From Promethearchaeota archaeon (GTDB lineage: Archaea > Asgardarchaeota > Lokiarchaeia > Sigyniarchaeales > SOKP01), in the NCBI GenBank assembly GCA_048940925.1, contig JBHLOC010000026.1, positions 9,569 through 73,568 on the forward strand: DNA of 64,000 bases. Reading direction: 5' to 3'. The notes under the pieces were generated by a model that was not told where the DNA came from, made no database searches, and saw only the letters and a list, made by a program, of their open reading frames with translations. A program made the translations under genes and the position numbers. Positions 12,631 to 45,936 of the stretch are shown here, one piece after another; the first letter of the stretch is position 1; every line of letters starts with the position of its first letter.

Positions 12631-14370
12631 CTAGAAAACACTATCTAAATCATCATTTGAAACGTCAAAGACCGTATTATGTGGTGGGAGTTTTTCTTCA
12701 AGAATGAATTCAGGAAGTCTATCATGCATGGACGTAAATCCTGCTTTTTTATTAAAATCTAGTTCTGTATCAATAATTGATTTTCCAAATGGTCCTACAT
12801 CATCAACAGTTAGATTTGTTCCTAAAACACCATTTAAAGATTCAACGACACCTTCTAATCCTTCAGGAATATCGAGTACTGCAAAAGCAATAAAAAGACA
12901 ATACCCCGTGGAATCAACAGCAGCTGTGGCTAATTGTAAATTACGAGACACTTCTGCTTTTTTTGGATCCAGTGGATCTAGTTGACCGCCTACGCCTAAA
13001 ACTTCTGGAGCAATAGCATAACCAGCAGTATGGTCAGCACCCATTGGTGTTGTTGCATATGTTACACCTATTCCTTTAATTGCCCTTGGGTCATAAGCAG
13101 GAAATCCTTGACCTTTAACTGTCGGTATCCTTGTAACACCTAACACCTTGCCGGTAATTTCTGTCCCATTAGCTAAAATCTTTCCAGTTGGTGTTTTCTT
13201 GCGTATTTCTTCCATGAGTTTTAAAGCTGTTTTTCCATCTCCAAAATCGGCTAACCCTCCTTCCATTGCTACTGCTAATGTATCTCCCGCTTCTATTGTG
13301 TCACATCCTAGATCATTACAAGCACGGTTTAACTCACCAATTTCATCTAAATTATAGATTCCACAATTTGGACCAAGCGACCAAACACTTTCATATTCAA
13401 GGACACCAACTGGATCTTTACCACCTGGCTTTACCCAAACTTCTGAACATTGTATAATACAACCAGGATTACAAAAGTGTGGTCTTTGACCACCTCTCTT
13501 TTTAATTATGTCTGCCTTTGCTTCACCAGACATTTGTTCCACTCGATCATCTTGACCAGCAGAAAAATTTCTCTGAGGGAGACCGCCTATCTCATTTATT
13601 ATATTGACTAATACACTTGTACCATAAGAGTTAAGTGCACCTCCTGGTTTTGTAACATCATGAGTTGTTAGAGCATCTCTTAATTTTTTAATACCTGCCT
13701 TAAATACTTCTTGATTCGCAATTTCTACTCCTGGAGCACCTGTTTCGTCAACTACTATAAATTTTAAGCCTTTCGATGCCATTACAGCACCTAGACCACC
13801 TCTTCCAGCATATCTACTGGGTAATCCTTCAGGATCATTAAAACAAACTCCTGACATAGATCCAAGGACTTCAGCAGCTATTCCAACTCCGCATATTCCT
13901 ATTTTCTCACCAAATTGTTTGAAAAGATCTTTATAAGTATCATATAATCCTTTTCCCACCCATTTTTTAGCATCAATAAATTCTGCACCATCATTTGTTA
14001 CTTTTAATAGATAATAATCATCCCCTTTATGTTTACCCTCTACGATTATTACACCGATTCGCATTCTTGCTAGCATTTGTGAAAAAGGAGTTCCTGCATT
14101 AGCCTCCTTTATACCACCAGTTAAGGGTGATTTTCCACCAACAGAAATTCTTCCGCTGGAGGGTGCTGCAGTTCCCGTAACAATCCCTGGGGCTAATACG
14201 AGTTTATTATGAATCCCCAATGGATCACAAGTCGGAGGTACTTCTTTAGCAACAATGGTAGAAGTCATGCCGCGTCCGCCTAGTGTTTTATATTCATCCG
14301 GTAAATCTTCGAATTTGGCTTCCAGATTAGTCATATTTACTCTTAATATTCTTTTCGGTATATTTATCAC
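12631..14370 (-). CDS. aor: aldehyde:ferredoxin oxidoreductase (tungsten AOR family)
   Basis: KSPLTGGIKEANAG, AGRGGLGAVMASK, C-x2-GC-x3-C, EYES, YDPR, GADH, DSTGYCLF; true start probably ATA at 14361. Confidence 0.95.
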   Translation of the reverse strand: MINIPKRILRVNMTNLEAKFEDLPDEYKTLGGRGMTSTIVAKEVPPTCDPLGIHNKLVLAPGIVTGTAAPSSGRISVGGKSPLTGGIKEANAGTPFSQMLARMRIGVIIVEGKHKGDDYYLLKVTNDGAEFIDAKKWVGKGLYDTYKDLFKQFGEKIGICGVGIAAEVLGSMSGVCFNDPEGLPSRYAGRGGLGAVMASKGLKFIVVDETGAPGVEIANQEVFKAGIKKLRDALTTHDVTKPGGALNSYGTSVLVNIINEIGGLPQRNFSAGQDDRVEQMSGEAKADIIKKRGGQRPHFCNPGCIIQCSEVWVKPGGKDPVGVLEYESVWSLGPNCGIYNLDEIGELNRACNDLGCDTIEAGDTLAVAMEGGLADFGDGKTALKLMEEIRKKTPTGKILANGTEITGKVLGVTRIPTVKGQGFPAYDPRAIKGIGVTYATTPMGADHTAGYAIAPEVLGVGGQLDPLDPKKAEVSRNLQLATAAVDSTGYCLFIAFAVLDIPEGLEGVVESLNGVLGTNLTVDDVGPFGKSIIDTELDFNKKAGFTSMHDRLPEFILEEKLPPHNTVFDVSNDDLDSVF

Positions 14371-14486
14371 CTCTATATGTATAGCATTATATAATTGTGA
14401 TTCTATTTTATTTATAGCTTATTATTATTATTCAAAACAACGATATGTTCTTGTAAACCAAACGTAAAAAATCATAAGTGAAAATT

Positions 14487-16451
14487 CTACAAGATCTTTA
14501 AATTTTCCTTAAAAATTGGTATATTAAGATAACTTGCATAATTTTGAGTATGGTAAATTTTTTGATTTGCAACTTTATATTCCCCCGATTTACCTTCTCC
14601 TCCCAAATTAGAATTAATATCAAATCTTGGAAAGTTGCTTGAAGTTATTTCTATTCTAATTCGATGTCCTATTCTAAAATAATTTGATGTATTTCCTAAA
14701 TTAATTTCAAATTTATAAGTCTTATTTGGATCTAAAAGCTTTGGAGTTTCTTCACCATGTCTATAGCGTGCTCTAATTCCTGCATCTAGAATATTAATAG
14801 CTTTTCCTCGAGGATATACATCAACTAGTTTCACCATAAAATCAGTATCTATTGCTGATGAGGAAGCATATAGTATCATACTTACAGGACCAGTTACTTC
14901 AACCCCTTTTTCTAAGGGATCTGTTGAATATATAAGAACATCATTTCTTTTTTCTGCATCTCTTTGATTTCGAGCTCCCATCAATATTCCTAAATTACGA
15001 CCTCCTCTCGTGATCACAGGATTTAAAGGATCAAAAGCGTAATTATCTTCAGGTTCTTCATCTGGTTGCTTAAAGTTTAATATCCCATCTCCTTTTATAC
15101 TATTTGCGGTCCATTGGGAATGAATAAATAATTTTTTATACTCAATATTTTTTGGTGGCCAACTCTCTGTATACCTCCATATATTTTTTCCCATTACCCA
15201 ATATTTAATAGATGGATTATTTATATCGGGAAAAGCTTTCTTATTATCCATTAGCCAATAGCGGTTCCAATTTAGGTTTACAATTTCTCTATAAAATCTT
15301 TGCATTCCAGCATTACGAAACATGCTTTCAGGACGACCAGGTGCTCCATGAGCCCAACTTCCTATTATCATTTTTGAAAACTTTCCAGATTTTCCAATGG
15401 CCTTAGCTTTGATTTCTAAAAAGTCTTTTAATTGCTTTTCAAAGAACATATCATACCATCCAGCGAGCATAAAAGCAGGTTGAGAAAACCTCTGCGTATC
15501 CATTTCTAAGAATCCAGGCATCTTTTTAGTATCTTTTTCTAAGCCACGTGTTATTAAAAAATCATTTAGAAATTTAAAGTAGGTATTAAAGTTTCGTTTA
15601 GTAGGTTTAAAATTTTCAACTTTATAATAAGCGACTAATAGATCTTGTACTTCTTTTATAGTTTTTCCTTTTAATTGAGATAATTTAATTCGAGCTTTTT
15701 TATTTATAGGATCATTATATAGTGCATACTTGGGATTTAAGTATCTCTCCTTCATTAAATCTGTTAATGTATCTACCTCAGGAGCATCGTAATGAGACAC
15801 TATGTTTACCATTATTCTATAAATAGAAGTAGTTAAGGCATGTATCTGTAGGCCTCCATTATCTTTCCATAAATTTCTAGTCGAAGTAACAGCAGGAATA
15901 ATACATGTTAATAAATCATTATCCCAAGATAACGCAAGTTGTGTAATTCCAAAATAACTACCCCCAGTCATTCCAATTTTGCCATTATACCAGTACTGTT
16001 TGGATATCCATTCAAGCGTCTCTAATCCATCTTCTCTTTCAGTGAATAAGTAATAATTAAATCCATCAGAATGCCCTGTACCCCTTATATCCTGTATACA
16101 ACATATAAAACCATAGGAAGCATATGCATATCCTAAAATACTCAAACTTTCTTTCCAATATGGTAAACGTACTAGCATTGTAGGGCACTTTCTTTTTTTC
16201 TTAAATACTTCCTTGGGGACATACACATCAGTCGCTAATCGTGTTCCATCCTTTAATTTTAACATATATTCAGGATATCTTTTTATCCCATGCTTAGGGA
16301 TTCCAGATCGTAATAATATTGCTATAATCTTTACAAATGGCACTTTACCATGTTTCATAAAAAAAGATGAAATTTTTTTGATAAATTTAGGAAATTTTGG
16401 CTTAACTGCGACCTTTAAATAAGAAAAGTCAGTCACATAATTTTCTTTCAT
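14487..16451 (-). CDS. CocE/NonD family alpha/beta hydrolase
   Basis: DGTRLATDVY, QDIRGTG-x-SDG, GGSYFG nucleophile elbow, GWYD, W-x-HG, SSNFPRFD. Confidence 0.93.
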   Translation of the reverse strand: MKENYVTDFSYLKVAVKPKFPKFIKKISSFFMKHGKVPFVKIIAILLRSGIPKHGIKRYPEYMLKLKDGTRLATDVYVPKEVFKKKRKCPTMLVRLPYWKESLSILGYAYASYGFICCIQDIRGTGHSDGFNYYLFTEREDGLETLEWISKQYWYNGKIGMTGGSYFGITQLALSWDNDLLTCIIPAVTSTRNLWKDNGGLQIHALTTSIYRIMVNIVSHYDAPEVDTLTDLMKERYLNPKYALYNDPINKKARIKLSQLKGKTIKEVQDLLVAYYKVENFKPTKRNFNTYFKFLNDFLITRGLEKDTKKMPGFLEMDTQRFSQPAFMLAGWYDMFFEKQLKDFLEIKAKAIGKSGKFSKMIIGSWAHGAPGRPESMFRNAGMQRFYREIVNLNWNRYWLMDNKKAFPDINNPSIKYWVMGKNIWRYTESWPPKNIEYKKLFIHSQWTANSIKGDGILNFKQPDEEPEDNYAFDPLNPVITRGGRNLGILMGARNQRDAEKRNDVLIYSTDPLEKGVEVTGPVSMILYASSSAIDTDFMVKLVDVYPRGKAINILDAGIRARYRHGEETPKLLDPNKTYKFEINLGNTSNYFRIGHRIRIEITSSNFPRFDINSNLGGEGKSGEYKVANQKIYHTQNYASYLNIPIFKENLKIL

Positions 16452-16497
16452 TAAATTGATAAAATAAGAATGACTTAAAAAGTTTTAAAATAATGAG

Positions 16498-16605
16498 TGG
16501 CAGGCTCGGGGGGATATATTCAAAAAACGCGATTTGCATATCTTTTTGAACCCCCGGTCTTCAGCTTAGGAGGCTGCCGCCTTATCCAAACTAGGCCACG
16601 AGCCT
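16498..16605 (-). tRNA. tRNA-Arg(CCU) with a 30-nt intron in the T-loop (position 58/59; plus-strand 16516-16545) and encoded CCA
   Basis: acceptor AGGCTCG/CGAGCCT, D stem GCCT/AGGC, anticodon loop CTCCTAA, T stem GGGGG/CCCCC; removing the intron restores TTCAAAT; a bulge-helix-bulge can form. Confidence 0.93.
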
Positions 16606-16688
16606 AAGTTCACTTCTTTTTTCAATAATCCAATGAAAGTATATTATAATAAAAGGTTGAATTAAATATATATATAAAATGTTTGGAA

Positions 16689-16853
16689 TTATAGATTGAG
16701 TTTACTTCTAATGTAGGCTACACCACAAATTCGGCAAAAATATTTATCGTTAATTAACATAGCTTTTTCTATCGGAATCTCCTCTTGACAGTTCATGACA
16801 CAGCAAATTACTATTTTTTGCGTTCCCTCTTCCTCTTTAGACATTCTATTCAT
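16689..16853 (-). CDS. small zinc-finger protein (54 aa, not in ORF track)
   Basis: MNRMSKEEEGTQKIVICCVMNCQEEIPIEKAMLINDKYFCRICGVAYIRSKLNL; C-x4-C...CxxC. Confidence 0.75.
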   Translation of the reverse strand: MNRMSKEEEGTQKIVICCVMNCQEEIPIEKAMLINDKYFCRICGVAYIRSKLNL

Positions 16854-16986
16854 CGAATTTACTGTAAGTTTTTATGTATAGAACTATAAAAATAACAAAC
16901 CAAATCAAAAGGTTTTAATTTATTTTTAGTTAATCACAATTATAATAGTTTTTTTTATAATAATTGTTTTTTCGAGTTTTTGTATA

Positions 16987-17256
16987 ATGTCGCGTGATAG
17001 TTATTCCAGATCAAATCGCCCTATAGATTATTTAAAGGATTCTATTGACAAAATAATTCTCATAAAAGTTAAGCGCAATAGACTCTTCCGGGCAATGCTA
17101 CTTGGCTTTGATGAGCATCTGAACGTCTATGTCAAAGATGCTCAGCAAATATTTGAATATCAAGATGAAGATGGTAATATTCGAGAGGAACATGAAGATC
17201 TTGGAGAAATTGTAATACGTGGTGATAATATTATATTTATAAATCTTGCAGATTAA
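16987..17256 (+). CDS. Sm-like (SmAP/LSm) RNA-binding protein
   Basis: RPIDYL, Sm1 LLGFDEHLNV, Sm2 IRGDNII. Confidence 0.95.
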   Translation: MSRDSYSRSNRPIDYLKDSIDKIILIKVKRNRLFRAMLLGFDEHLNVYVKDAQQIFEYQDEDGNIREEHEDLGEIVIRGDNIIFINLAD

Positions 17257-17565
17257 CCAATCCATCAAATTAATTGAATGTGAGCTTGTTTAACATATTT
17301 CCATCTACTATAGTCTATAATTAGAATTATTGAAAATTATAGTGATATGAGGAAGATTACTTAATAAATTATAAAATAAAATTTGAAATGATGAATTTCA
17401 TTAACTGAATTTAATTCTTACGCAAGATAATCTTAGTTAAAAATATCAAAAAATTTATTTTTTTAATTTCAATCATCTTTCTTGTTATTTTTAAAATAGA
17501 ATTCCCCAAAAATATAATTTTAAGTCAAGATAATCTAAAATAATTGAACGAGAGTTTTTAAAAAA

Positions 17566-19632: not shown

Positions 19633-19825
19633 TTGGTGAATGTAGTCATTGCTTTTTTCACTTGAACCCTAATTTCCAAAGATACTATTCATATTAGTTG
19701 ATATTAGCATTGATAAAAGGACTAAGCATTAAATAAAAATCTTAGAAAAAAAAAAGTAGAAAAGAAAATAACAAATTATAACTAAATAAGCATAAAATAT
19801 AACCAAACTTAAATTTATTATTTCA

Positions 19826-21064: not shown

Positions 21065-21074
21065 AAATTATGTA

Positions 21075-24572: not shown

Positions 24573-25022
24573 TTATCTTATGATTAAAACATCGCAAGGG
24601 GTATTTTTTAATATTTTTAACGATCGAGTCCCAAGAAATGATTTTTTCAATTTAGAATGATGCCCATTACACCCTAAGATAACAAGATCAAATTCTTCTT
24701 CTTCTACTGTCTTTTTAATATAATCCTCAGGGGTATAATCTTCAATTAGTCGAGATTCTACGGAGATATGTGATCTGTCAAAGATTTTCTTAGTTTCTTT
24801 TAATATTTCTTTCCCTAATTCTTTACGAGAATCCTCGGTAATTGTATAATTATTGGATAGAAGATTGTTTTCAGGATAAAATATTGAGGGATATTTATTA
24901 TGTTTCAATGAATGGAACATCACTATCTTGGAATCCCAATCTTTTTGAAAATCAACAATTTGCTTAGCTGCATTGTCTGAATAGGCTGAACCGTCAGTAG
25001 CAAATAAGATTTTCTTATATAT
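24573..25022 (-). CDS. universal stress protein (UspA family), ATA start
   Basis: frame extends to (M)YKKILFATDGS; DLVILG-x2-G...LG...PCDVLIIR; RBS GAGGTGG 5 nt before ATA, which directly follows an in-frame TAA. Confidence 0.9.
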   Translation of the reverse strand: MYKKILFATDGSAYSDNAAKQIVDFQKDWDSKIVMFHSLKHNKYPSIFYPENNLLSNNYTITEDSRKELGKEILKETKKIFDRSHISVESRLIEDYTPEDYIKKTVEEEEFDLVILGCNGHHSKLKKSFLGTRSLKILKNTPCDVLIIR

Positions 25023-25032
25023 TTAAACCACC

Positions 25033-25617
25033 TCATACTTTTTGTTTAAATAAAAAATTTAATTCATTTTTTTCATAAGGGTATTTTAATGAATTAAAAT
25101 AGTTTTCACAAATTTTTATTAAGTTATTTCTTATGTTTTCTTTAACAATATCTGCCCTTTTGATGATTTCTTTTATCTTGGGAGATATAATCAAATTTTC
25201 TTTTAAAATTTCTGACTCTATAATTTGATTTAAGGAAGGACTAAAATTTTTTTTAACCGTTTTCATTAAAATATTGAGTAAATCAGATCCATAAATGTCA
25301 AATTCTCTTGGCAAGACAATAATAATAACTATTTTATCAAAATTCTCTTCCTTGATTCTTGGCTTTCTTTTTTTTCGTTCTAAAAAAATTTTAAATTTTT
25401 TTGCGAAATAAACTTTTTCATTATAAACTAAATTAACTTGCTCAAAACCTCTTAGATTTTCTGAATTAAGAAACCAGATTGGATGAAATTTTATTGGACG
25501 TATTTGATTTTCATTCTTTTCAATAAATTCGTTTGAAAAAATTAAAATTGGAATTAATCCTTTAATTTCATTAAAGTGTAATATATAAATCTGGCAAAAT
25601 TCTGAGAGTAAAGCCAA
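25033..25617 (-). CDS. hypothetical protein, possibly longin/uDENN-like fold
   Basis: N-terminal ILHFNEIKGLIPILIF hairpin resembles longin/uDENN starts; fold is tentative. Confidence 0.5.
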   Translation of the reverse strand: MALLSEFCQIYILHFNEIKGLIPILIFSNEFIEKNENQIRPIKFHPIWFLNSENLRGFEQVNLVYNEKVYFAKKFKIFLERKKRKPRIKEENFDKIVIIIVLPREFDIYGSDLLNILMKTVKKNFSPSLNQIIESEILKENLIISPKIKEIIKRADIVKENIRNNLIKICENYFNSLKYPYEKNELNFLFKQKV

Positions 25618-30249: not shown

Positions 30250-31605
30250 ATGTTAGATAATAATAAAAAAGAACAAATAAAATTATCTTATCCAGATAAT
30301 TTAGCTGCTACTGATGAAATTGAAGTCTATGAAAGATTAAAGAAAGAGGATTTTCCAAAAGTAAATCCTTTTGAAATGGCAAAAAAACAAATCGATATTG
30401 TTGCAGAAAAGATGGGATTAAATGAAAATATTAGGAAATATCTCAAAAGAGTAGAGCGCTCTTTAATTGTATCTGTCCCAATAAAGATGGATGATGGAAG
30501 TATTGAAATCTTCGAAGGATATAGAGTGCAACACTCGACTGTTCGAGGACCTGGTAAAGGAGGGATCAGATTTGCTCCAACTGTTAATCTTGATGAAGTT
30601 AAAGCATTAGCGACTTGGATGACGTGGAAGTGTAGCTTATTAAATCTTCCTTTAGGAGGCGCTAAAGGGGGCGTATGTGTAGAGCCTAAAAAATTATCTA
30701 AAAACGAATTAGAAAGGTTAACGCGGAGATATACAGCAGAAATTATAAACTTTATAGGGCCTGATATGGATATACCTGCTCCAGATATTAATACAAATGC
30801 ACAAATAATGGCTTGGATTATGGATACATATTCTATGAATAAAGGGAGAGCCATTCCTGGAGTAGTAACAGGGAAACCAATAGAAATAGGAGGTTCAATT
30901 GGGAGAGAAACAGCAACAGGAATGGGTTTATTTTATATACTTGAAGCATTGTGTAATAAAATGAATAAAGATCTAAAAAGTCAAACAATTGTTGTGCAGG
31001 GCTTTGGCAATGTCGGAGGAAATATTGCAAAAATTTTATACGATAATGGATGTAATATTATTGCTGTATCAGATATTTCTGGAGGATTATATGCAAAAAA
31101 GGGATTAAATATTAATGAATTATTAGAATGGAGCAATAAAAATAAATTCTTGAAGGATTTTAAAAATGGACTCTATAAATTTATCAGTAATGAAAATATC
31201 CTCACACTAAAATGTGATGTTTTAATTCCTGCAGCAGTAGAGAATCAAATAAATCAATTAAACGCTTATGATGTAAATTGTAAAATTATATTAGAGGGTG
31301 CTAATGGACCAACTACTCCAGAAGCAGATGATATCTTAAATAAAAAAGGGATAGTAATAGTGCCTGATATCCTTGCCAATGCAGGAGGTGTATGTGTCTC
31401 TTATTTTGAGTATATCCAAGATATACATAGCTATTTTTGGAGTTTAGAAAGAATTAATCACGAATTAAAGCATATTCTTACTAATGCATTTAAAGAAGTT
31501 TATAGAATTTCAAAAGAAAAGAACGTGAGTCTAAGAATAGCATCATATATTATTGCCATTTCAAGATTAGCTAAAGCAATTGATTTGAGAGGATTTTTTC
31601 CTTGA
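30250..31605 (+). CDS. gdhA: glutamate dehydrogenase (Glu/Leu/Phe/Val family)
   Basis: RGPGKGGIRF, MTWK, GGAKGG, PAPD, VTGKP, QGFGNVG, EGANGP, NAGGV. Confidence 0.97.
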   Translation: MLDNNKKEQIKLSYPDNLAATDEIEVYERLKKEDFPKVNPFEMAKKQIDIVAEKMGLNENIRKYLKRVERSLIVSVPIKMDDGSIEIFEGYRVQHSTVRGPGKGGIRFAPTVNLDEVKALATWMTWKCSLLNLPLGGAKGGVCVEPKKLSKNELERLTRRYTAEIINFIGPDMDIPAPDINTNAQIMAWIMDTYSMNKGRAIPGVVTGKPIEIGGSIGRETATGMGLFYILEALCNKMNKDLKSQTIVVQGFGNVGGNIAKILYDNGCNIIAVSDISGGLYAKKGLNINELLEWSNKNKFLKDFKNGLYKFISNENILTLKCDVLIPAAVENQINQLNAYDVNCKIILEGANGPTTPEADDILNKKGIVIVPDILANAGGVCVSYFEYIQDIHSYFWSLERINHELKHILTNAFKEVYRISKEKNVSLRIASYIIAISRLAKAIDLRGFFP

Positions 31606-31656: not shown

Positions 31657-32550
31657 TCAGTTTTCTTTTTTAACACTAAAATTTATTTTATCAGTCATTT
31701 TAAAAATGTCTATAAAGCTTGATACATGAATTGGTAATTGGATTCCATCAAGGGTTTTTATTTCTTCATTAATAAATCTCCAGAGATTTTTTTCATCTTT
31801 AGCTATAACTTTTACTAATAAATTATAATCACCAGTAGAAGATGCAACTAATTGTATCTCATCATATTTGGAGAGTTTTCTCGCAATATAATCTAATTTT
31901 AATGGATCTATAGAGAGACCAAGAATAGCTATAGAATCATATCCCACTTTAAAAGGATCCACAAGTGTATCAAATTTTTTTATGATACCTTCTTTTATCA
32001 TATTCTGTACTCTGTTATGTATGGTACTAGCAGCCAAATTCACTTTTTTACTTAAATCCTTATAAGAGATTCTATAATTTTCTTGTAATAATTCAAGAAT
32101 TTCTTTATCTTTATCATCAAATATTTGTTTTATATCTTTATCTATTTTCTTTTCAGATTCAATTTTGTGTCGTTCAATAGCATATAAAATTGCTCGTATT
32201 AAACTTGAACCATTAAGTTCATCTTTTATTATATAGTCCTGAGCGCCTTTTTGAAGAGATTTTAAAGCAAAATCCTTATCATCTAAACCAGTTAAAATAA
32301 TTATAGGAATCGTGTTCGTAATATTCAAGACTTTATCTAATGTAGATTCTCTATCACTATCCGGTAGAGTCAAATCTAATAGAACAATATCTAAAATTTT
32401 GCTTTTGAGATGATTTATACTTTCAGAAAGCCTTTGTTTTGATTCTAAATTAAATTTAAAATCTTCAGAAGATTTTAATAATTCTTCAATGAGACGCACG
32501 TCAGCTTTATTATCTTCAATTAATAGTATATTAATTTTTTTTTTTTCGAT
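31657..32550 (-). CDS. REC-Lrp/AsnC fusion response regulator, ATC start
   Basis: frame extends to (M)EKKKINILLIEDN; LLDL-x-LPD, IILTG, DYIIK; C-terminal Lrp HTH + RAM domain. Confidence 0.9.
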   Translation of the reverse strand: MEKKKINILLIEDNKADVRLIEELLKSSEDFKFNLESKQRLSESINHLKSKILDIVLLDLTLPDSDRESTLDKVLNITNTIPIIILTGLDDKDFALKSLQKGAQDYIIKDELNGSSLIRAILYAIERHKIESEKKIDKDIKQIFDDKDKEILELLQENYRISYKDLSKKVNLAASTIHNRVQNMIKEGIIKKFDTLVDPFKVGYDSIAILGLSIDPLKLDYIARKLSKYDEIQLVASSTGDYNLLVKVIAKDEKNLWRFINEEIKTLDGIQLPIHVSSFIDIFKMTDKINFSVKKEN

Positions 32551-34571: not shown

Positions 34572-35156
34572 TTAAGCAATTTTTATTGAACTTGTGGATT
34601 TATAAACATCTAATAAGTTAGATACATGAATTTGAGGCTTGATTCCATTTATTGTTTTGATTTTTACATTTATGAAATTCCAGAGCGATTTTTCATCCCT
34701 AGCAATTATCTGAGCGATAATATCATGATCTCCAGTTGAAATCGCAACAAGTTGAGTTTCTTCATAGGAGGCAATCTTATTTGCGATATCATTCATTCTT
34801 ATTGGATCTACTGAAAGACCTACTATTGCTATCGTATTATACCCAATTTTCGCGGGATCTATAGTTGTTGCAAACTGCTTAATTATTTCTTCTTCAATCA
34901 TCTTTTTTACTCTATTATGAATTGTACTCGCTGCTAATTTTAGCTTTTCTGCTAATTCTCGATATGAGATCTTATTATTATTTTGTAAAATATTTAAAAT
35001 TTCCTTATCTTTTTCATCCATAGAGTGGCAATTCCAGGGATAATTTTTACGATCATCATTAAAAATAATTCCATGCTCTATTGAAAATCCATCACATCTG
35101 TGATAAATCTTTCTACCTAGCGAATATTCTTCTCCACACTTAGGACAGGTTACTAT
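34572..35156 (-). CDS. Lrp/AsnC regulator with an N-terminal Cys/His zinc-finger extension (ATA start; ATG at 35021 is the alternative)
   Basis: 45 in-frame codons (VTCPKCGEEYSLGRKIYHRC...H...WNCHS) precede the Lrp domain DEKDKEIL...STIHNRV. Confidence 0.8.
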   Translation of the reverse strand: MVTCPKCGEEYSLGRKIYHRCDGFSIEHGIIFNDDRKNYPWNCHSMDEKDKEILNILQNNNKISYRELAEKLKLAASTIHNRVKKMIEEEIIKQFATTIDPAKIGYNTIAIVGLSVDPIRMNDIANKIASYEETQLVAISTGDHDIIAQIIARDEKSLWNFINVKIKTINGIKPQIHVSNLLDVYKSTSSIKIA

Positions 35157-37225: not shown

Positions 37226-37290
37226 AGAAATTAAGAATTGATGAATAAATATGAATTAAAGAAAAATATGTTTAAATTCAGGTTCAATGA

Positions 37291-37328: not shown

Positions 37329-37394
37329 TTTTGGTGATAAAATACACTATATAATGATAATAAAACAATACCCCAATTTCAAATTAAATATTTA

Positions 37395-37703: not shown

Positions 37704-37721
37704 TATAATCTACAGGAATCA

Positions 37722-38129: not shown

Positions 38130-38180
38130 TTTTTTTCAATTTTTTTTTTAATATATATAGGGATTTATAAAATTTAAGTT

Positions 38181-38200
38181 TAATGAATAATTATTCATAA
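38181..38200. promoter_or_regulatory. 20-bp palindromic operator between NifB/NifX and DUF134 (weaker copy at 38297-38316)
   Basis: TAATGAATAATTATTCATAA. Confidence 0.8.
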
Positions 38201-38393
38201 AACAATTCTATTAATTCTTTCTTCTTTTATTATATTTAGAACATTATTAAACAAAAATGAAAAATTAAAATACCTTTAATAAATGATTTTTAATAATTAT
38301 GAATAACAATTAATAATAAAAATTTAAATGAATTCTTATACAAAAGGGTATTAATTGGAGAAATAGTCATTATCATAATTTTGGTGATTTGGT

Positions 38394-38816
38394 ATCGGAA
38401 GAAGGAGACATCGAAGATGGGTTACCTATACACCTAATAATATTTATTTTTCAAGTGATCCTCCTAAATCAGAAGATTCAGTAATATTAACCGTAGCTGA
38501 ATTTGAGGCTATGCGACTTAAGCATTTTATAGGTTTAAATCAGAAAGTAGCTGCTGATAGAATGGGAATTAGTCAACCTACATTTTCTAGAATTCTCGAA
38601 AGTGCACATCAAAAAAATACTTTAGCACTACTTGAGGGAAAACAAATTAAAGTGTATGGGGGTAATGTGGACTACTATAAACCAAGCTTTTTAGGATATG
38701 GATGTCAAGATTGTAATTATGAATGGGAAGATGAAAATGCATCTAAAGATAGGAAGGTTAATTGTGTTAAATGTAATTCTAATAATGTATATTTTCTAGT
38801 AAAAGAGTTTATATAG
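38394..38816 (+). CDS. DUF134 (UPF0251) predicted DNA-binding protein with C-terminal zinc ribbon, ATC start
   Basis: (M)GRRRHRRWV...LTVAEFEAMRL...Q-x2-AA-x-RMGISQPTFSRIL-x-SA...CQDC...CVKC. Confidence 0.9.
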   Translation: MGRRRHRRWVTYTPNNIYFSSDPPKSEDSVILTVAEFEAMRLKHFIGLNQKVAADRMGISQPTFSRILESAHQKNTLALLEGKQIKVYGGNVDYYKPSFLGYGCQDCNYEWEDENASKDRKVNCVKCNSNNVYFLVKEFI

Positions 38817-38855
38817 TTTTTGAAGCCTTGAACCTTAAAAAAGAGAGTAATTAAA

Positions 38856-39821: not shown

Positions 39822-40734
39822 TTTTTAACCACATTTTTAAGTTAATATATATCTCGGTAAATGCAATGAACCCAGGGCCATTCCTGTCAAAATTATTACT
39901 TTTATCCATAAGGGGTGTTCCAAGACAGTAAGAATTCACAATATCCGCATCTAAAGGAATATCACCCAAAATCTCAATGCTTTCATCTTGTAATTCTTTT
40001 AAAAATTGATCTCTAAAACCTAATAATGATGATCTATTCACTATTACCTTGGAATCCTTTCCCAATAAATTTATCAATTCCATTATCCTTAATAAATCTA
40101 GTTTACCAAATTTGGTGGGTTCTGTAATAGGAATTGCCACATCTGATGTATCAATCAAAAGTTCGACATCACAATGAGCTCCTGGTGCAGTATCTAAAAT
40201 GACGATATCGTATTTGTTTGGGGTTTCAGTTATAATTTCTTCAAGGTTTTCTACAAGTTCTTCCACTATTCCTGCTGAACGAGCTTCTGAAGGTTTCAAT
40301 TCACCAAGTATTAGCGACATTCCATTAATTTCAGTAGAGTATGTCCATCCTATCGTTTTAAAATCAGGTTCAATTGCGTTTTCTGGACATATCTTATAGC
40401 ATAATCTACAGCCGTTGCAAAGATTTAACATGGGGATTGGAATTGCATTCTCTATATGTAATAGAGCATGACTTGTACAATTCTGAGCGCATAATCCACA
40501 TCGAGAACACTTGTCCTCTACAATTTTGGGCATGAAAAAAGGAACACTTGTTTTATTCTCAAGTTCTCCCTTTAATAAGAGATATGTATTAGGATTCTCC
40601 ACATCTCCATCAATAAGAAGTACTTTATATCCCTCATTTTTGAACATAACAGCGATATTTACAGCGCATAAGGTCTTTCCGGTTCCTCCCTTACCCCCCG
40701 TAATACAAATTATTATAGGCTTATTACTACTCAT
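39793..40734 (-). CDS. MinD-superfamily P-loop ATPase with inserted ferredoxin
   Basis: GGKGGTGKT, D-x-DVENPN, CSRCGLC, CNGCRLC, DTAPGAHC, TEPT. Confidence 0.92.
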   Translation of the reverse strand: MSSNKPIIICITGGKGGTGKTLCAVNIAVMFKNEGYKVLLIDGDVENPNTYLLLKGELENKTSVPFFMPKIVEDKCSRCGLCAQNCTSHALLHIENAIPIPMLNLCNGCRLCYKICPENAIEPDFKTIGWTYSTEINGMSLILGELKPSEARSAGIVEELVENLEEIITETPNKYDIVILDTAPGAHCDVELLIDTSDVAIPITEPTKFGKLDLLRIMELINLLGKDSKVIVNRSSLLGFRDQFLKELQDESIEILGDIPLDADIVNSYCLGTPLMDKSNNFDRNGPGFIAFTEIYINLKMWLKIDGKSAEGE

Positions 40735-40770
40735 AAGAAAATATTTATTTTTTATTAATTCCTAGCTTTT

Positions 40771-41235
40771 CTAAGGGCGATTTCCGCCACCCATACCACG
40801 ACCACCGCCCATGCCACGACCACCGCCCATGCCACGACCACCGCCCATACCATAATGAGATGCTACATTTGAGGTAGTAATTTTTTGTAGTTTTCCTTCT
40901 ATAAAGAGATTTATAACTTCTTTTATGGACGTTTGTCTATTGGGGGCTTGAAAAATATCTATATTCAAAGAATTAAGTCCATTTGATGCATTTGGACCTA
41001 AAAAGCCTACTATTACCACATTAGCATTATTATTCCCAATTATCTGGGTTGCTTGCACACCTGCACCGCCCATCGCATTAGCTGCATGGTTTGGAACAGT
41101 CCTTACTGCTGTGATTTCATTATTTTCCAATTCAACAAATGTAAAACTTGGACATCTTCCAAATCGAGGACTCATATCATCGTTTAAACCGCCTTTTCCC
41201 ATCGAGGGAATTCCAACAACAACCATTTTTTTCAA
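40771..41235 (-). CDS. NifB/NifX family protein with GMGGGR-repeat tail
   Basis: PRFGRCP-x-F, GGAG-x-QA, GPNA; likely start ATG 41226. Confidence 0.9.
   Translation of the reverse strand: MKKMVVVGIPSMGKGGLNDDMSPRFGRCPSFTFVELENNEITAVRTVPNHAANAMGGAGVQATQIIGNNNANVVIVGFLGPNASNGLNSLNIDIFQAPNRQTSIKEVINLFIEGKLQKITTSNVASHYGMGGGRGMGGGRGMGGGRGMGGGNRP
40784..40851. repeat. 18-bp coding tandem repeat (GMGGGR x3 plus a partial unit)
   Basis: ccacgaccaccgcccat(g/a) at 40796, 40814, 40832. Confidence 0.9.
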
Positions 41236-41272
41236 CCTTCTTTTTTAATTGTCAAAACAAAAGTTTTTTAAT

Positions 41273-41292
41273 TTATGAATAATTATTCATTA
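41273..41292. promoter_or_regulatory. 20-bp palindromic operator between NifB/NifX and mrp
   Basis: TTATGAATAATTATTCATTA. Confidence 0.8.
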
Positions 41293-41421
41293 TCAATAAT
41301 TAAAGAAATTAAAAACTTATAAATTTAACCTATTTAAAACTAAACGATTAGAGAATTTAAACTTAAGAGGTGGATAAATATTCAAGATAGAGATATTCCA
41401 GATATTGATCTAAAGGAAACG

Positions 41422-42252
41422 ATGAAACAAGGGAAAAAAGAACAAATGGACAAATTGACGGTAAGCATCGAAAAAAATATGCAAAAAATTAAACACAAAC
41501 TTGTTATCATATCTGGTAAAGGTGGCGTAGGAAAAACTACTGTAGCAGTAAACTTAGCTACTAATTTAGCTAGTTATGGATTTCGCGTTGGAATCTTAGA
41601 TGTTGATATTACAGGTCCGAATGTATCTAAAATGTTAGGAATCAGTCCAGATATGCGACCACGTGTCGATCCTGATGAGAGGAAGTTTTATCCGCTTAAT
41701 GGCCCATTAAATATTAAAGTAATGAGTATGGCATTTCTGACCGACAATCCAGATTCACCCGTTATTTGGAGGGGACCCATGAAAATGGGTGCTGTCAGGC
41801 AATTTTTAGGGGATGCCATTTGGGGTGAACTTGATTATTTAGTATGTGATTTACCACCAGGAACTTCAGATGAGACATTAGATATTCTACAGTTGATTCC
41901 GGATGAGAATGTAATAGTGGTATCGACACCTCAAGAAGTTGCGCTTATGGATGCTCGAAAGACGATAAGAATGGCTCAGATCATGAAAAGAAATGTACTT
42001 GGGATTATTGAGAATATGTCGGGCTTTAATTGCCCGCATTGTGGAAAATATATCGATCTGTACCCTCCAGGAGGCGCACAAAAAGCAGCAAAAGATTTTG
42101 GAGTTAGACTTTTAGGGCAAATCCCTTTTGAAATTGAAGTAGGCCAACAGGGTGATAAAGGTCTACCATTTGTAGTAAAATATCCTGATAGTAGCTCCGC
42201 TAAAGCTTTTAAGGAAAGTGTTAAAAAAATTAGAGAATTATTAGAAAAGTAG
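41422..42252 (+). CDS. mrp: Mrp/NBP35 Fe-S cluster carrier ATPase
   Basis: SGKGGVGKT, DVDITGP, WRGP, DLPPGTSD, TPQ, ENM-x4-CPHC. Confidence 0.95.
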   Translation: MKQGKKEQMDKLTVSIEKNMQKIKHKLVIISGKGGVGKTTVAVNLATNLASYGFRVGILDVDITGPNVSKMLGISPDMRPRVDPDERKFYPLNGPLNIKVMSMAFLTDNPDSPVIWRGPMKMGAVRQFLGDAIWGELDYLVCDLPPGTSDETLDILQLIPDENVIVVSTPQEVALMDARKTIRMAQIMKRNVLGIIENMSGFNCPHCGKYIDLYPPGGAQKAAKDFGVRLLGQIPFEIEVGQQGDKGLPFVVKYPDSSSAKAFKESVKKIRELLEK

Positions 42253-42253
42253 T

Positions 42254-42709
42254 ATGCCAAAGGATAATATAGATAGATGGGTAGAGGAACTCCAAAAGGA
42301 AATAAATAAAGAAACAATTGAACAATATAATGAATATATTTTTGAATTAATACAAAATCCAAAGAACTGGGGTAAACCAAAAAGTTCTGAAATAAGTGTG
42401 TGGCATGCATATGAAGGTTCATGCGGTGATACAATGCAGTTTTTTTTAAAAATTGAGAATGATATAATTAAAAAGGCTAACTTCATAACTGATGGTTGTG
42501 GGGCTACAGTTGCAGCGGGAAGTCAAACAACAATGATGATAGAAGGAAAATCGCTGCAATTTGCTGAAAATATACAACCGAATGAAATTGATGAAGCGAT
42601 TGGCGGTTTACCTGAGGATCATAAACATTGTGTTGAATTAGCAGCAACAACTTTAAGAAAAGCAATTGAGAAATACAAGTACCAAAGTCAAGAAAAAGAA
42701 TTTCCATAG
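42254..42709 (+). CDS. IscU/NifU-like scaffold protein
   Basis: NP-x-NWG, GSCGDTM, TDGC, GGLP-x3-KHC. Confidence 0.92.
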   Translation: MPKDNIDRWVEELQKEINKETIEQYNEYIFELIQNPKNWGKPKSSEISVWHAYEGSCGDTMQFFLKIENDIIKKANFITDGCGATVAAGSQTTMMIEGKSLQFAENIQPNEIDEAIGGLPEDHKHCVELAATTLRKAIEKYKYQSQEKEFP

Positions 42710-42714
42710 AAAAT

Positions 42715-43650
42715 ATGAAATATGTATATGGGCCAGTACCGAGTAGGAGATTAGGAAAATCATTAGGTATTGATCCAATTCCTTCTAAAACATGCAATTA
42801 TCAATGTATATATTGTCAGCTAGGAAAAACAACTAATTTCACTAATACAAGGAAAAATTATTATCCCAAAGAAGAAATTTCCCGTGAAATTGAAGATGCA
42901 ATTGAATTAAATAAAAATAAATTTGATTATATCACCTTTGTAGGTAGTGGCGAACCTACATTATATAAAGATTTGAAAGATTTAATTTTAAAGGCTAAGC
43001 AATGCACGAAAAAACCAATTTGTGTAATTACAAACGGAAGTTTATTGTATAATACCGATGTCAGCAATACTTTAATGTTAGCAGATGTTGTATTACCCAG
43101 CTTAGATGCTGGAGATGAAAAATCATTCATAAAAATAAATCGACCTCATCCTGCTCTAAAATATGATGAAATAATCCAGGGATTTTTAGACTTTAAGAAA
43201 AATTTTAGTGGTAAATTCTGGGTAGAAGTAATGTTAATGAAAGGGATTAATGATACAAGTGAGGAATTACTAAAAATTAAAGAAATATTAGACTTAATAA
43301 AACCTGATAGAATTGATATTAATGTTCCTATAAGACCTCCTACAGTAGAGTGGGTTAAAATTCCGAGTAAGAATATAATTCCGATTTTAAATGAGATTTT
43401 TGATGATTATAAAAATATTAATTTTCCGGAGCAAGGTAAATTCATTACCTATTCCTTTGATTTTGAACACGAAATACTCTCAATACTAGAGAGACATCCT
43501 ATGAGACAAAGTCAAATTATCGAAACTTTTTCCTCTTTTAATTTTAATAAGGATAAGATTAAAGAACAGTTAAAAAAGCTTAAAGCTCAAAACAAAATTA
43601 AAGTGACACTCTATAATAATCAAATATTTTGGAAATTGAATACAGATTAG
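42715..43650 (+). CDS. radical SAM protein
   Basis: YGPVPSRRLG-x-SLG, CNYQCIYC, GSGEPTL, ITNGSL, PSLDAG. Confidence 0.93.
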   Translation: MKYVYGPVPSRRLGKSLGIDPIPSKTCNYQCIYCQLGKTTNFTNTRKNYYPKEEISREIEDAIELNKNKFDYITFVGSGEPTLYKDLKDLILKAKQCTKKPICVITNGSLLYNTDVSNTLMLADVVLPSLDAGDEKSFIKINRPHPALKYDEIIQGFLDFKKNFSGKFWVEVMLMKGINDTSEELLKIKEILDLIKPDRIDINVPIRPPTVEWVKIPSKNIIPILNEIFDDYKNINFPEQGKFITYSFDFEHEILSILERHPMRQSQIIETFSSFNFNKDKIKEQLKKLKAQNKIKVTLYNNQIFWKLNTD

Positions 43651-43682
43651 GTATTCCATTCAAAATTTAAAGTATAATTTTA

Positions 43683-44063
43683 CTAATTTTCGAGAAGTAG
43701 ATTTTCTAATGCAGTTGATACTTCAGGAGTTAGGTGATGCTCAATTTCACATGATAATTTTTTTATCAATTCGTTATTCTCTAATTTTAGCACATTACTA
43801 AAAAAATCACATAAATTCTGAAAGGTTCGAAATATATCCTGAGCAATTTTTTTTCCTTTTTTAGTTAATCTCAAAGATTTTCTTGGTTTCCAAACTATTA
43901 GTTCTTTTGCTTTCAATTTATATAACATGTTAGTTACCGAGGGGGGTTTAACCTTTAACAATTCTGAAATTTCTGAGTTTGAGACCCAACCTCCTTTATT
44001 ATGTTTTGAAATTAAGTATATTGCCTTTAAATAATCTTCATAACTCTCATTTACTTTTGTCAT
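43683..44063 (-). CDS. DtxR/MntR metal-dependent transcriptional regulator
   Basis: EDYLKAIY, V-x-PPSVT-x-M, LT-x2-G, CEIEHH. Confidence 0.92.
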   Translation of the reverse strand: MTKVNESYEDYLKAIYLISKHNKGGWVSNSEISELLKVKPPSVTNMLYKLKAKELIVWKPRKSLRLTKKGKKIAQDIFRTFQNLCDFFSNVLKLENNELIKKLSCEIEHHLTPEVSTALENLLLEN

Positions 44064-44104
44064 CTTAATCTTGTCCTTTAAAGAATGATAAAATTAAAAA
44101 AAAA

Positions 44105-44473
44105 TTATTCTTCTTTTTCCAATTCAGTTATCCTTTTAGCGATGTCGTCCAATGCGCTTTTAATACCATTCATTTCGGATTCTAGATAGGTTTTCTCTTG
44201 CTTTAACATGGACAATTGATTTTCTTGACTAATTTGTGGTACGACTCCTGGTGTATATGGCGCATAAAAAGGGGTTCTATAACCCCAACCCCAACCTCTT
44301 CCATATCCTAAACCTCTACCACGACCCCAGCCTCTACCACGACCCCAACCTCCACCAAATCCCATCCCAGGACCTTTTGTAAACCCGGGTGTATCATAAC
44401 CAGCACAGTATCCTAATGCTCTCCCAGTCATTGGACCTAATCCTCGAGGTCCAGTTCTATCTCCACCTGGCAT
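44105..44473 (-). CDS. DUF5320 family Gly/Arg-rich protein
   Basis: MPGGDRTGP-x-G-x-GPMTGR-x2-GYC, WGRGRG repeats, C-terminal coiled coil. Confidence 0.88.
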   Translation of the reverse strand: MPGGDRTGPRGLGPMTGRALGYCAGYDTPGFTKGPGMGFGGGWGRGRGWGRGRGLGYGRGWGWGYRTPFYAPYTPGVVPQISQENQLSMLKQEKTYLESEMNGIKSALDDIAKRITELEKEE

Positions 44474-44504
44474 CTTAATTTTTTCACCTCTTATGCATTA
44501 ATTT

Positions 44505-44586
44505 TTATGAATGATTATTCATTTATATTTTCCTATTATAATAATAATTAACTACATATTTAAATATTATGAATATATATTCAAAA
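44505..44586. promoter_or_regulatory. two 20-bp palindromic operators upstream of DUF5320-mntR
   Basis: TTATGAATGATTATTCATTT (44505) and TTATGAATATATATTCAAAA (44567). Confidence 0.75.
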
Positions 44587-44760
44587 TAGATTTTATTAAA
44601 TATTTCATTAAAAATAAATCAAGTCTTATAAATAACTATATTTGCAAAATCAGCTGTTTTATAATTAATATAGAAATAAATAATATATCTACATCATTTC
44701 AATTTGAAATTTTTATTTAACATATAAAATCATTTGATAGAAATGTAGGAATATTTTTTA

Positions 44761-44778
44761 TATTAGGTGTAACTAATA
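44761..44778. promoter_or_regulatory. candidate DtxR/MntR box upstream of feoA1
   Basis: imperfect palindrome TATTAGGTGTAACTAATA. Confidence 0.55.
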
Positions 44779-44855
44779 TTATTTAGCAAAAAAATCACAA
44801 ATGATCTTTATATATTTTAAACTTCAAAAATTGCTAAATAAGGAAAGAAAGTCTC

Positions 44856-45137
44856 ATGGACTCGGAATTTGGGGAATACATCCCAAAATATGATAAAAAA
44901 AAATCAATTTTAAAAACTTTGATTGAATGCCCTATAGGGATAAAATTCAAAGTACAAAGAGTTAATGCAGGTTATCATGCTAAGGGAAGACTTGCTTGTT
45001 TAGGTGTTATTCCCGGAGTTGAAATAATGAAAAAAAAGACTGCTCCCTTTCGAGGACCTATTGAAGTTCTCGTTAAAGGAACCTTATTAGTGATTGGAAG
45101 AGGATTAGCATCTAAAATAGTTGTAAATGATTTATAA
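44856..45137 (+). CDS. feoA: ferrous iron transport protein A
   Basis: RLACLGVIPG...AP-x2-GP...VIGRGLASKI. Confidence 0.92.
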   Translation: MDSEFGEYIPKYDKKKSILKTLIECPIGIKFKVQRVNAGYHAKGRLACLGVIPGVEIMKKKTAPFRGPIEVLVKGTLLVIGRGLASKIVVNDL

Positions 45138-45287
45138 GTCAGAATAATTAAACTTATTCTAATTTTTTTTTAATATATCTCAAATGGTTGATACTCCATG
45201 AATTTAATCTAAGAAAAACTAATTTTTATTTAATTGAGATTAGCTTTCATTTCTAAAATATAAAACCAAGATTTATTAGAAAATAGA

Positions 45288-45413
45288 TTATGTTAAGTAT
45301 CTAAAAGAATATTAAGGTGGGAATAAGTAGACTTCATAAATGGAGCAAAAACCGTTGGAGTTGCGATTTTGAAGGATTTTATTTTAGAAGCAGATGCGAT
45401 TCAATGGTTTTGA
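45288..45413 (+). pseudogene. possible relic of a DsrE-like protein C-terminus
   Basis: LC*VSKRILRWE*VDFINGAKTVGVAILKDFILEADAIQWF*. Confidence 0.35.
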
Positions 45414-45561
45414 AATCTTTATCTTAATATTTTTAGGAAAAGTATCTAATATGTGAGATATATTAGTTATCTCCAATCTAAATATCAAATATTTAAATTT
45501 TAGTTTCATTCTTCTATAAAATCTTAAAATATATTAATGATATTTATAATAATATTTTTAT

Positions 45562-45580
45562 AATTTGTTATGCCTAAATT
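45562..45580. promoter_or_regulatory. candidate DtxR/MntR box upstream of feoA2-feoB
   Basis: reverse strand AATTTAGGCATAACAAATT shares TTAGGYRTAACWAA with the 44761 site. Confidence 0.55.
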
Positions 45581-45639
45581 TATATTTAATTGTTACTTTT
45601 TATTATTAAAAGACTCTTTTTATCTGGTGAATAAGAATA

Positions 45640-45936
45640 ATAAACTCGATAACTGTTGACCGAAAGGATGAAAAATATCAACAAACATCTTTGATTAGAT
45701 GTTTAACGGAATGTAAAAAAGGAGAAATGGTTCATGTCGTAAGTGTTAATGCTGGTTTTAAAGCTAAAAAGCGTCTTGCTAACTTAGGAATTTTACCTGG
45801 AGTGAAAATTATTAAAAAAGAATCCGCTCCATTAAAAGGACCATTAGAAATAAAAGTAAAAGGAACATCCATAGTGATTGGGAGAGGTCTAGCCTCTAAA
45901 ATCTTAGTTAAATGTAATGAAAGATGTGAATTTTAA
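45640..45936 (+). CDS. feoA: ferrous iron transport protein A (ATA start likely; TTG 45691 is the alternative)
   Basis: RLANLGILPG...APLKGP...IGRGLASKI; ATA AAC TCG aligns with ATG GAC TCG of feoA1. Confidence 0.9.
   Translation: MNSITVDRKDEKYQQTSLIRCLTECKKGEMVHVVSVNAGFKAKKRLANLGILPGVKIIKKESAPLKGPLEIKVKGTSIVIGRGLASKILVKCNERCEF

Follow-up and report, generated by a model that had tools for sequence, protein, structure and literature searches.

Genes with no canonical start codon

Several genes in a stretch of DNA from an uncultured Lokiarchaeial (Promethearchaeota) archaeon appear to lack any usable ATG, GTG or TTG before their conserved N-terminus, which raises the question of where their translation begins. 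The window analyzed here is the whole 64,000-nucleotide stretch (assembly GCA_048940925.1, contig JBHLOC010000026.1, positions 9,569 to 73,568), and it belongs to a metagenome-assembled genome (MAG) that is 100% complete with 8.4% contamination. A preliminary description of this sequence had proposed that eight genes start at ATA, ATC, ATT or CTG behind strong GGTGA-type ribosome-binding sites, and had inferred relaxed start-codon selection in the lineage. We found all of its coordinates to be correct. The observation was confirmed for three core sites, is supported for three more, and extends further than was claimed, whereas two of the eight sites remain undecided. The three core cases are bounded by an in-frame stop and have no in-frame ATG, GTG or TTG before the conserved domain:

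24573..25022, minus strand: universal stress protein (Usp) gene starting at ATA 25022-25020, directly after TAA, with the Shine-Dalgarno (SD) sequence GAGGTGG at 25034-25028 and a 5-nt spacer
31657..32550, minus strand: receiver-domain plus Lrp/AsnC regulator (REC-Lrp) gene starting at ATC 32550-32548, with GGTGA at 32561-32557, a 6-nt spacer and an in-frame TGA inside the SD
38394..38816, plus strand: DUF134 gene starting at ATC 38394-38396, with GGTGAT at 38383-38388 and 6 nt between GGTGA and the ATC

The Pfam Usp match starts at residue 2, whereas the first canonical start is GTG at codon 34. In REC-Lrp, the receiver domain starts at residue 8 and the first canonical start is at residue 18. 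In DUF134, the domain starts at residue 2 and the first ATG is residue 40. Orthologs showed only start-capable codons at these exact positions, while the spacer varied. Sixteen Usp orthologs/paralogs carried ATT (10), ATA (2), ATG (2) and TTG (2), and twelve species carried ATA (9), ATC (2) and ATG (1) in REC-Lrp. Across 47 Lokiarchaeial DUF134 loci, the codon was ATA in 22 (behind GGTGA in all but one, mostly TGGTGAT), ATG in 24 (nearly all with a weaker SD) and TTG in one.

Four additional genes in the window were supported by orthologs. The last of these was not in the preliminary description:

12631..14361, minus strand: aldehyde:ferredoxin oxidoreductase (AOR) gene, most likely starting at ATA 14361-14359, with GAGGTGA at 14373-14367 and a 5-nt spacer
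34572..35156, minus strand: Lrp/AsnC regulator with an N-terminal Zn-ribbon extension (Zn-Lrp), most likely starting at ATA 35156-35154 behind the imperfect SD GAGCTGAT (35168-35161)
63554..63690, minus strand: small Zn-ribbon protein gene starting at ATT 63690-63688, directly after TAG, with GGTGA at 63702-63698 and a 7-nt spacer
41380..42252, plus strand: ParA/Mrp-like (NUBPL) P-loop ATPase gene starting at ATT 41380-41382, with GAGGTGG at 41367-41373 and a 6-nt spacer

For AOR, TTG occupies the same codon in 5/5 orthologs, and the in-frame GTG at 14370 is part of the SD. The Zn-ribbon extension of Zn-Lrp is conserved (79-82% identity over the whole length), and one ortholog has ATG and one has ATA at the proposed start, although a CTG/TTG start inside the SD cannot be excluded. 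At 63690, one ortholog has ATG, and another has ATT with the downstream GTG changed to GTA. At 41380, three orthologs carry ATT at the same codon, two paralogs carry ATG, and one ortholog lacks the downstream ATG.

The starts of the following two genes could not be decided:

45637..45936, plus strand: feoA2, with ATA 45637 (spacing 6 from GGTGA 45626-45630), ATA 45640 (spacing 9) or TTG 45691 as possible starts
58636..59115, minus strand: mvhD/FlpD gene, with canonical TTG 59115 behind AGTGA-N6 or CTG 59100 behind GGGGGA-N6 as possible starts

The feoA2 orthologs, as well as feoA1, carry an N-terminal stretch of similar length from canonical starts, but the FeoA domain is complete from the TTG. 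In mvhD, orthologs carry ATG, ATC/CTG or TTG at the CTG position or one codon before it. Three further candidates in the window were rejected: ATT 44479, because ATG 44473 matches position 1 of the DUF5320 profile; ATC 55304, which lies inside a selenoprotein gene, downstream of a Sec TGA; and ATT 26372, because TTG 26357 is equally good for the thioredoxin domain. A hexamer coding-potential test did not discriminate, because every stop-free extension scored as coding and the noncoding control contained stops, and it was not used as evidence.

Genome-wide occurrence of ATH codons in start register

To examine whether these cases could arise by chance, we counted codons that were first in an ORF behind an SD of at least 5 nt at register 6-7 throughout the genome. 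ATA, ATT and ATC (ATH) occurred 76 times against 18.2 expected (p 5e-24), such that roughly a quarter of these candidates are expected to be background. In comparison, ATG occurred 153 times, TTG 57 and GTG 10, and the other 55 codons showed no excess (134 against 140 expected). CTG was not enriched (2 against 0.6 expected), and use of this codon, which had been suggested for mvhD, is therefore not shown. ATH starts used the GGTGA core more often than ATG starts did (52% against 18%, p 2.5e-9) and peaked more sharply at spacing 6.

In an unselected sample of 20 such genes, 14 had a Pfam match; in 10 of these the domain started upstream of the first canonical codon, and none of the 20 contradicted the ATH start. 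The affected genes were not specially regulators, although three of the cases had been noted as such. They include an actin paralog, profilin, uL16, ThiF and an alcohol dehydrogenase. The main Lokiactin starts at ATG, and only an actin paralog starts at ATT. Tuning of expression, as proposed in the preliminary description, remains plausible because the weak codon is conserved.

The same excess was observed in three other genomes, two of the family and one of a neighboring family. The trait is strong in this family and weak in a relative that may be the cultured Prometheoarchaeum lineage. One additional genome, G027 (53% GC), gave no interpretable signal, because decoy codons were as frequent as ATH.

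Translation apparatus and a model for initiation

No 16S rRNA was found in the genome itself, nor in two family genomes, and the anti-SD was read from a same-order relative, whose 16S 3' end reads GGATCACCTCC. A search for tRNA genes with ARAGORN without introns found 12 tRNAs and no tRNA-Met. When introns were allowed, the initiator gene was found, and its fold was re-drawn by eye; it has A1:U72, anticodon CAU and a GGG/CCC anticodon stem, and looks canonical. Interestingly, the gene for the start-codon proofreading factor aIF1 itself has no canonical start and begins at ATT, and ATT or ATC occupies this codon in the 38 family aIF1 genes where the start aligns. However, alignment of aIF1 did not yield a substitution specific to the ATH-rich family. 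RKWG in loop 1, with its unusual Trp, and the ITFxG motif are shared with G026, an ATH-poor relative.

The data suggest, with a probability of about 0.85, that these are genuine translation start sites, although initiation is inferred from sequence and not measured. In this model, the small ribosomal subunit docks on a strong SD, whose core is GGTGA, from GGAGGTGATC, the complement of the 16S rRNA 3' end, and this docking places the codon about 6 nt downstream in the P site. Initiation in this Lokiarchaeial family is then accepted not only at AUG and UUG but also at AUA, AUU and AUC, and rarely at ACG. The initiator tRNA is presumably the ordinary Met-tRNAi, pairing at the first two bases and mismatching at the third. 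It may also be inferred that efficiency is lower than at AUG and is therefore used to set expression, and that aIF1, by starting at AUU, feeds back on start-codon stringency, as IF3 does in bacteria.

It is possible, although this remains tentative, that stringency in this family is set low and held there by such a loop, which would be convergent with bacterial IF3 and with eukaryotic eIF1. The 60 or more AUH/ACG-initiated genes (an actin paralog, profilin, Roadblock proteins, uL16, stress proteins and regulators) would then form a set whose output rises and falls with aIF1 activity, that is, a global translational control layer in a close relative of eukaryotes. This would be consistent with the observation that, among the five genomes sampled, ATH use tracks the aIF1 start codon (enriched where aIF1 starts at ATH, not enriched where it starts at TTG).

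Alternative explanations

We considered a non-standard decoding step, such as RNA editing of the third base to G, a second initiator-like tRNA reading AUH, or a modified C34 on tRNAi. Only about 30-34 tRNA genes were detected, many of them intron-bearing calls, so an unusual tRNA could have been missed, and nothing excludes base modification. However, three different third bases (A, U and C), plus ACG and UUG, are used, a pattern that fits mismatch tolerance better than one specific editing or decoding event, and the one initiator tRNA found is canonical. In addition, the internal ATA of REC-Lrp aligns with ATC (Ile) in orthologs, so there is no change in the genetic code. Non-standard decoding thus appears unlikely.

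It is also unlikely that the proteins start at the next downstream ATG, GTG or TTG and that the upstream stretch is an untranslated leader. Such starts are chosen by ORF finders restricted to these codons and by Prodigal-type public gene calls, and for feoA2 and mvhD a canonical start gives a complete domain. However, this would delete the first strand and phosphate-binding residues of Usp, the acidic pocket of the receiver domain and 39 residues of DUF134, and would truncate 10 of the 14 sampled proteins that have a Pfam match. The upstream stretch is conserved at the protein level and is bounded by a stop exactly at the ATH in many species, and no SD precedes the downstream codons.

Termination-reinitiation at the stop inside or next to the SD is similarly doubtful. 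Most GGTGA-N6 cases have the TGA of the SD in frame, and for Usp an upstream ORF ends in the SD region, at 25033. However, the in-frame TGA follows automatically from spacing 6, ATH starts also occur at spacing 5 and 7 with other stops, and no ORF of 60 aa or more ends at the SD of REC-Lrp or DUF134, which have no evident upstream ORF to couple to.

Finally, sequencing or assembly errors, frameshifts or pseudogenes, which might be suspected from the contamination of the MAG, the A12 run following the REC-Lrp ATC and a GTG in another frame inside the SD, are very improbable, as the same ATH codon recurs in independently assembled genomes of 12-47 relatives, the A12 run is absent from orthologs, and the ORFs are intact and conserved.

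Consequences for annotation and comparison with known systems

Asgard archaea are read almost entirely through predicted proteins. If a few percent of genes start at ATA, ATT or ATC, Prodigal-type catalogues hold truncated or missing versions of them, including some eukaryotic signature proteins, which distorts domain, structure and phylogeny work. Mechanistically, it would show that a eukaryote-type initiation apparatus guided by an SD can run with relaxed third-base discrimination. The mis-annotation anticipated in the preliminary description is real for Prodigal-type calls: ENA/JGI/Logan gene calls truncate these proteins, giving 100-123 aa truncations of DUF134. However, NCBI/PGAP already calls some of these starts. 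Its records give the full-length protein, starting MGRRRHRRWV, for DUF134 orthologs, two of them on contigs whose DNA reads ATA at that codon. NCBI genetic code table 11, as applied by PGAP, allows ATT, ATC, ATA and CTG as alternative initiators, but these are gene-by-gene homology rescues, and in the literature searched we found no description of a lineage-wide habit, its geometry or the aIF1 link.

In the archaeon Haloferax volcanii, harringtonine ribosome profiling gave evidence that codons other than AUG, GUG and UUG can initiate, and about 30% of the putative alternative start sites were near-cognate (PMC7261190). Those sites were set aside as possible false positives, and they are alternative sites in a mostly leaderless transcriptome, whereas here the codons are SD-led and are the only possible starts of conserved genes.

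In eukaryotes, AUA, AUU, AUC and ACG are among the near-cognate codons used, and eIF1, the homolog of aIF1 that rejects such codons, is autoregulated through a poor start context (PMC5666671); in both cases the factor's own mRNA has a suboptimal start. However, eukaryotes scan from the cap, prefer CUG and use a Kozak context, whereas here the position is set by SD pairing, CUG is not enriched, and ATH is the main start of ordinary genes, not of uORFs or isoforms.

In bacteria, AUU or AUA starts behind an SD occur in E. coli infC (IF3) and pcnB and, with extended SD motifs, in S. aureus infC, cvfC1, ccpN and citZ (PMC13009471). As in the Lokiarchaeial genes, the near-cognate codon lies at a fixed distance behind a strong or extended SD, the weak codon is conserved among relatives, and the fidelity-factor gene itself uses AUH. 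Reporters in S. aureus give about 10-30% of AUG output, whereas no output has been measured for the Lokiarchaeial starts. In those bacteria a handful of genes is affected, whereas here there are about 60 or more, roughly one in five SD-led first-in-ORF starts, in an archaeon with a eukaryote-type initiation apparatus (aIF1, aIF1A and aIF2) rather than IF3.

Start codons of the genes in the window

The window (29-30% G+C) lies on contig C85 of a 4.8-Mb genome in 90 contigs, designated here G000. The related public contigs are all from MAGs and, by their titles, belong to Promethearchaeota/Promethearchaeia, i.e., Lokiarchaeial Asgard archaea. The assembly scores 100% complete with 8.4% contamination, and its 16S rRNA is not assembled. 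The preliminary description of this region had proposed that several genes begin at ATA or ATC behind strong SD sites, and all of its coordinates were found to be right. The three core sites are as follows:

Usp, minus strand: GAGGTGG at 25034-25028, followed by TTTAA and then ATA at 25022, directly after an in-frame TAA.
REC-Lrp, minus strand: GGTGA at 32561-32557, followed by AAAACA and then ATC at 32550, with the TGA of the SD in frame.
DUF134, plus strand: GGTGAT at 38383-38388 and ATC at 38394, again with the TGA of the SD in frame.

In the proteins initiated at these codons (hereafter ATH, for ATA, ATT and ATC), Pfam places the start of the Usp domain at residue 2, of the receiver domain at residue 8 and of DUF134 at residue 2, whereas the first ATG/GTG/TTG lies at residues 34, 18 and 40, respectively. 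Therefore, canonical starts would mutilate all three domains.

We then fetched orthologous loci from other species of the genus and beyond and aligned the DNA at the N-terminus. For REC-Lrp, 12 species carry ATA (9), ATC (2) or ATG (1), always 6 nt after GGTG[A/T], while the spacer differs freely and the A12 run found in the window is not conserved. For Usp, 16 orthologs and paralogs carry ATT (10), ATA (2), ATG (2) or TTG (2). For DUF134, 47 Lokiarchaeial loci (L053-L099) carry ATA (22), ATG (24) or TTG (1). The ATA copies are mostly those of the closer relatives, and all but one sit behind GGTGA, mostly as TGGTGAT, whereas the ATG copies are mostly those of the more distant ones and nearly all have a weaker, degenerate SD. 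This covariation of start codon and SD strength across Lokiarchaeia suggests compensatory evolution. Only start-capable codons occur at this position, and the weak codon persists through many speciations although a single A-to-G change would give ATG, a pattern which argues for a functional start that is kept weak.

Several softer sites were examined in the same way. In the AOR gene, the ATA at 14361 aligns with TTG in 5 of 5 orthologs (GAGGTGAAAAAT TTG CCA AAA AGA ...), and the in-frame GTG is the SD itself. In Zn-Lrp, the Zn-ribbon extension is conserved, and the ATA at 35156 aligns with ATG in one ortholog and with ATA in another, behind GAG[C/T]TGAT; however, a start at the CTG/TTG inside that motif could not be excluded. 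The ATT at 63690 aligns with ATG in one ortholog and with ATT in another, in which the downstream GTG has become GTA. Two of the proposed starts are undecided. In feoA2, the codon at spacing 6 is ATA 45637, while the ATA at 45640 favored in the preliminary description is at spacing 9 but does line up with the ATG of feoA1. Orthologs carry N-terminal stretches of similar length from canonical starts; nevertheless, TTG 45691 gives a full FeoA domain. In mvhD, TTG 59115 has its own AGTGA-N6 site, whereas the proposed CTG 59100 aligns with TTG in one ortholog. In addition, we detected a new case, a ParA/Mrp-like ATPase gene that begins at ATT 41380 (GAGGTGG-N6); three orthologs carry ATT there and two paralogs carry ATG at the same codon.

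The window also contains, at 55244-57280 (plus strand), three adjacent ORFs that are one HdrA-like flavoprotein gene with three in-frame TGA codons at Cys-motif positions (ICRUG, DCAIU, GVCUN). It is therefore a selenoprotein with three Sec, and the genome has a tRNA-Sec at C3:50050-50137.

Genome-wide occurrence of ATH starts

Upstream of high-confidence ATG starts, the enriched 5-mers were pieces of GGAGGTGAT, with spacings that put the end of GGTGA about 6-7 nt before the start. For every codon, we counted how often it followed a piece of at least 5 nt of this motif at each register from 0 to 15, was the first possible start of its ORF, was followed by at least 100 codons and, if non-canonical, had no canonical codon within 10 codons downstream. 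At register 6-7, the counts were ATG 153, TTG 57, GTG 10, ATA 31, ATT 32 and ATC 13. The ATH total of 76 compares with 18.2 expected from the off-register bins (p 5e-24). In contrast, the five commonest A/T-rich decoy codons gave 29 against 44.6 expected, and all other 55 codons together gave 134 against 140. Thus, GTG is rarer among these SD-led starts than ATA or ATT, while TTG is common. CTG is not enriched. ACG is enriched (6 against 0.6 expected, p 4e-5) and also appears to serve as a start codon behind GGTGA-N6/7 (e.g., C56:54439 on the plus strand, C71 on the minus strand and C55:59277 on the plus strand); the cases look like real N-termini, examples being a Rossmann-fold oxidoreductase and a crotonase-like protein.

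With GGTGA alone at spacing 6, ATH (43) outnumbers ATG (16), and recognizable N-termini include those of Usp, a Rossmann-fold oxidoreductase, an ABC ATPase, IscU/NifU and ThiF. The excess of about 58 genes corresponds to about 1.4% of ORFs of at least 120 codons and to roughly a fifth of SD-led first-in-ORF starts. It is a lower bound, because weaker SDs were not counted.

As an independent check, we took the first 20 candidates in contig order whose next canonical codon is at least 30 codons away, without any other selection. Ten have a Pfam domain that begins upstream of that codon (actin, ThiF, PALP, DUF3592, DUF371, Roadblock/LC7, tRNA_bind, profilin, ribosomal uL16 and ADH_N), four are uninformative and six have no Pfam match. 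None contradicts the ATH start. The canonical-start gene calls of three of these ATH-initiated genes would lack 38-58 N-terminal residues:

C7:31497-32642, plus strand: an actin paralog, starting at ATT.
C40:170304-170675, minus strand: a profilin, starting at ATA.
C41:83741-84373, plus strand: ribosomal protein uL16, starting at ATC.

The ortholog of the actin paralog in another genus has TTG at the same codon, whereas the main Lokiactin starts at ATG.

Possible mechanism of initiation

ATH starts are tied to the start-proximal GGTGA core more often than ATG starts are (52% against 18%, Fisher p 2.5e-9), and they also peak more sharply at spacing 6. At spacings 4-9 behind GGTGA, 63% of ATH starts sit at spacing 6, compared with 62% for TTG and 26% for ATG. 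This fits a model in which a rigid SD duplex holds the weak codon exactly in the P site. The 16S 3' end, read in a same-order relative, is GGATCACCTCCTTT. The initiator tRNA gene (C31, about 30449-30580, minus strand) has A1:U72 and anticodon CAU and, once its intron is placed at the canonical 37/38 position, also the GGG/CCC anticodon stem. It seems to carry two introns, one at 37/38 and one in the variable-loop region. No special decoder is evident, although only about 30 tRNA genes are detectable in the assembly. Internal ATA aligns with ATC and so reads as Ile. The simplest reading, which is inferred, is third-base mismatch tolerance by the ordinary Met-tRNAi.

We also examined aIF1. The genome has two copies (62% identical), neither of which has a usable canonical start before the Zn-knuckle and SUI1 domain, and both begin ATT-AAA:

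C31:2212-2526, plus strand: aIF1 paralog starting at ATT.
C58:42821-43135, minus strand: aIF1 paralog starting at ATT.

Several relatives also have two copies. Across the family, ATT (35) or ATC (3) occupies that codon in the 38 aIF1 genes where the start aligns, behind a conserved leader, AAGGTTGTGAWAAGAGAGT. This leader is strongly conserved in copy 1, where the ATT lies 9 nt after GTGA, an atypical geometry that may be regulatory. In two further family genera, the aligned codon is not a start. One neighboring genus has ATA, and another, whose sampled genome (G026) is complete, has TTG. The closest solved structure is M. jannaschii aIF1 (4MO0). We found no substitution specific to the ATH-rich family.

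Distribution in related genomes

The same tally was carried out on sampled DNA of relatives. Two genomes from other genera of the same family, G077 and G038, gave 6 against 1.2 expected and 9 against 1.2, respectively, and G024, from a neighboring family, with aIF1 starting at ATA, gave 6 against 1.0. G026, which may be the cultured Prometheoarchaeum lineage and whose aIF1 starts at TTG, gave 4 against 2.0 in 800 kb, with 34 ATG; its ATH:ATG ratio differs from that of the genome studied here (Fisher p 0.004), and TTG is almost unused in it (1 against 34 ATG). Thus, ATH use tracks the ATH start of aIF1 in this small sample; it should be noted, however, that the genomes are not phylogenetically independent. 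The results for G027 (53% G+C) were uninterpretable.

Comparison with known non-canonical start sites

Public protein entries show both behaviors. NCBI/PGAP entries give the full 139-aa MGRRRHRRWV... protein, and two of them (P0004 and P0008) sit on contigs whose DNA reads ATA at that codon, whereas ENA/JGI/Logan entries are truncations of 100-123 aa.

The data confirm the observation made in the preliminary description and support its interpretation of relaxed start-codon selection in this lineage, although the evidence is entirely comparative and statistical and no initiation event has been observed. Searches for non-canonical starts in Asgard or Lokiarchaea found no paper on the subject. 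Start sites of this kind are known; what is new here is their large-scale occurrence in an archaeon. The closest documented analogs are bacterial AUU/AUA starts behind extended SDs, including infC, at about 10-30% of AUG output (PMC13009471), near-cognate sites that were seen but set aside in Haloferax ribosome profiling (PMC7261190), and eukaryotic non-AUG initiation policed by eIF1.
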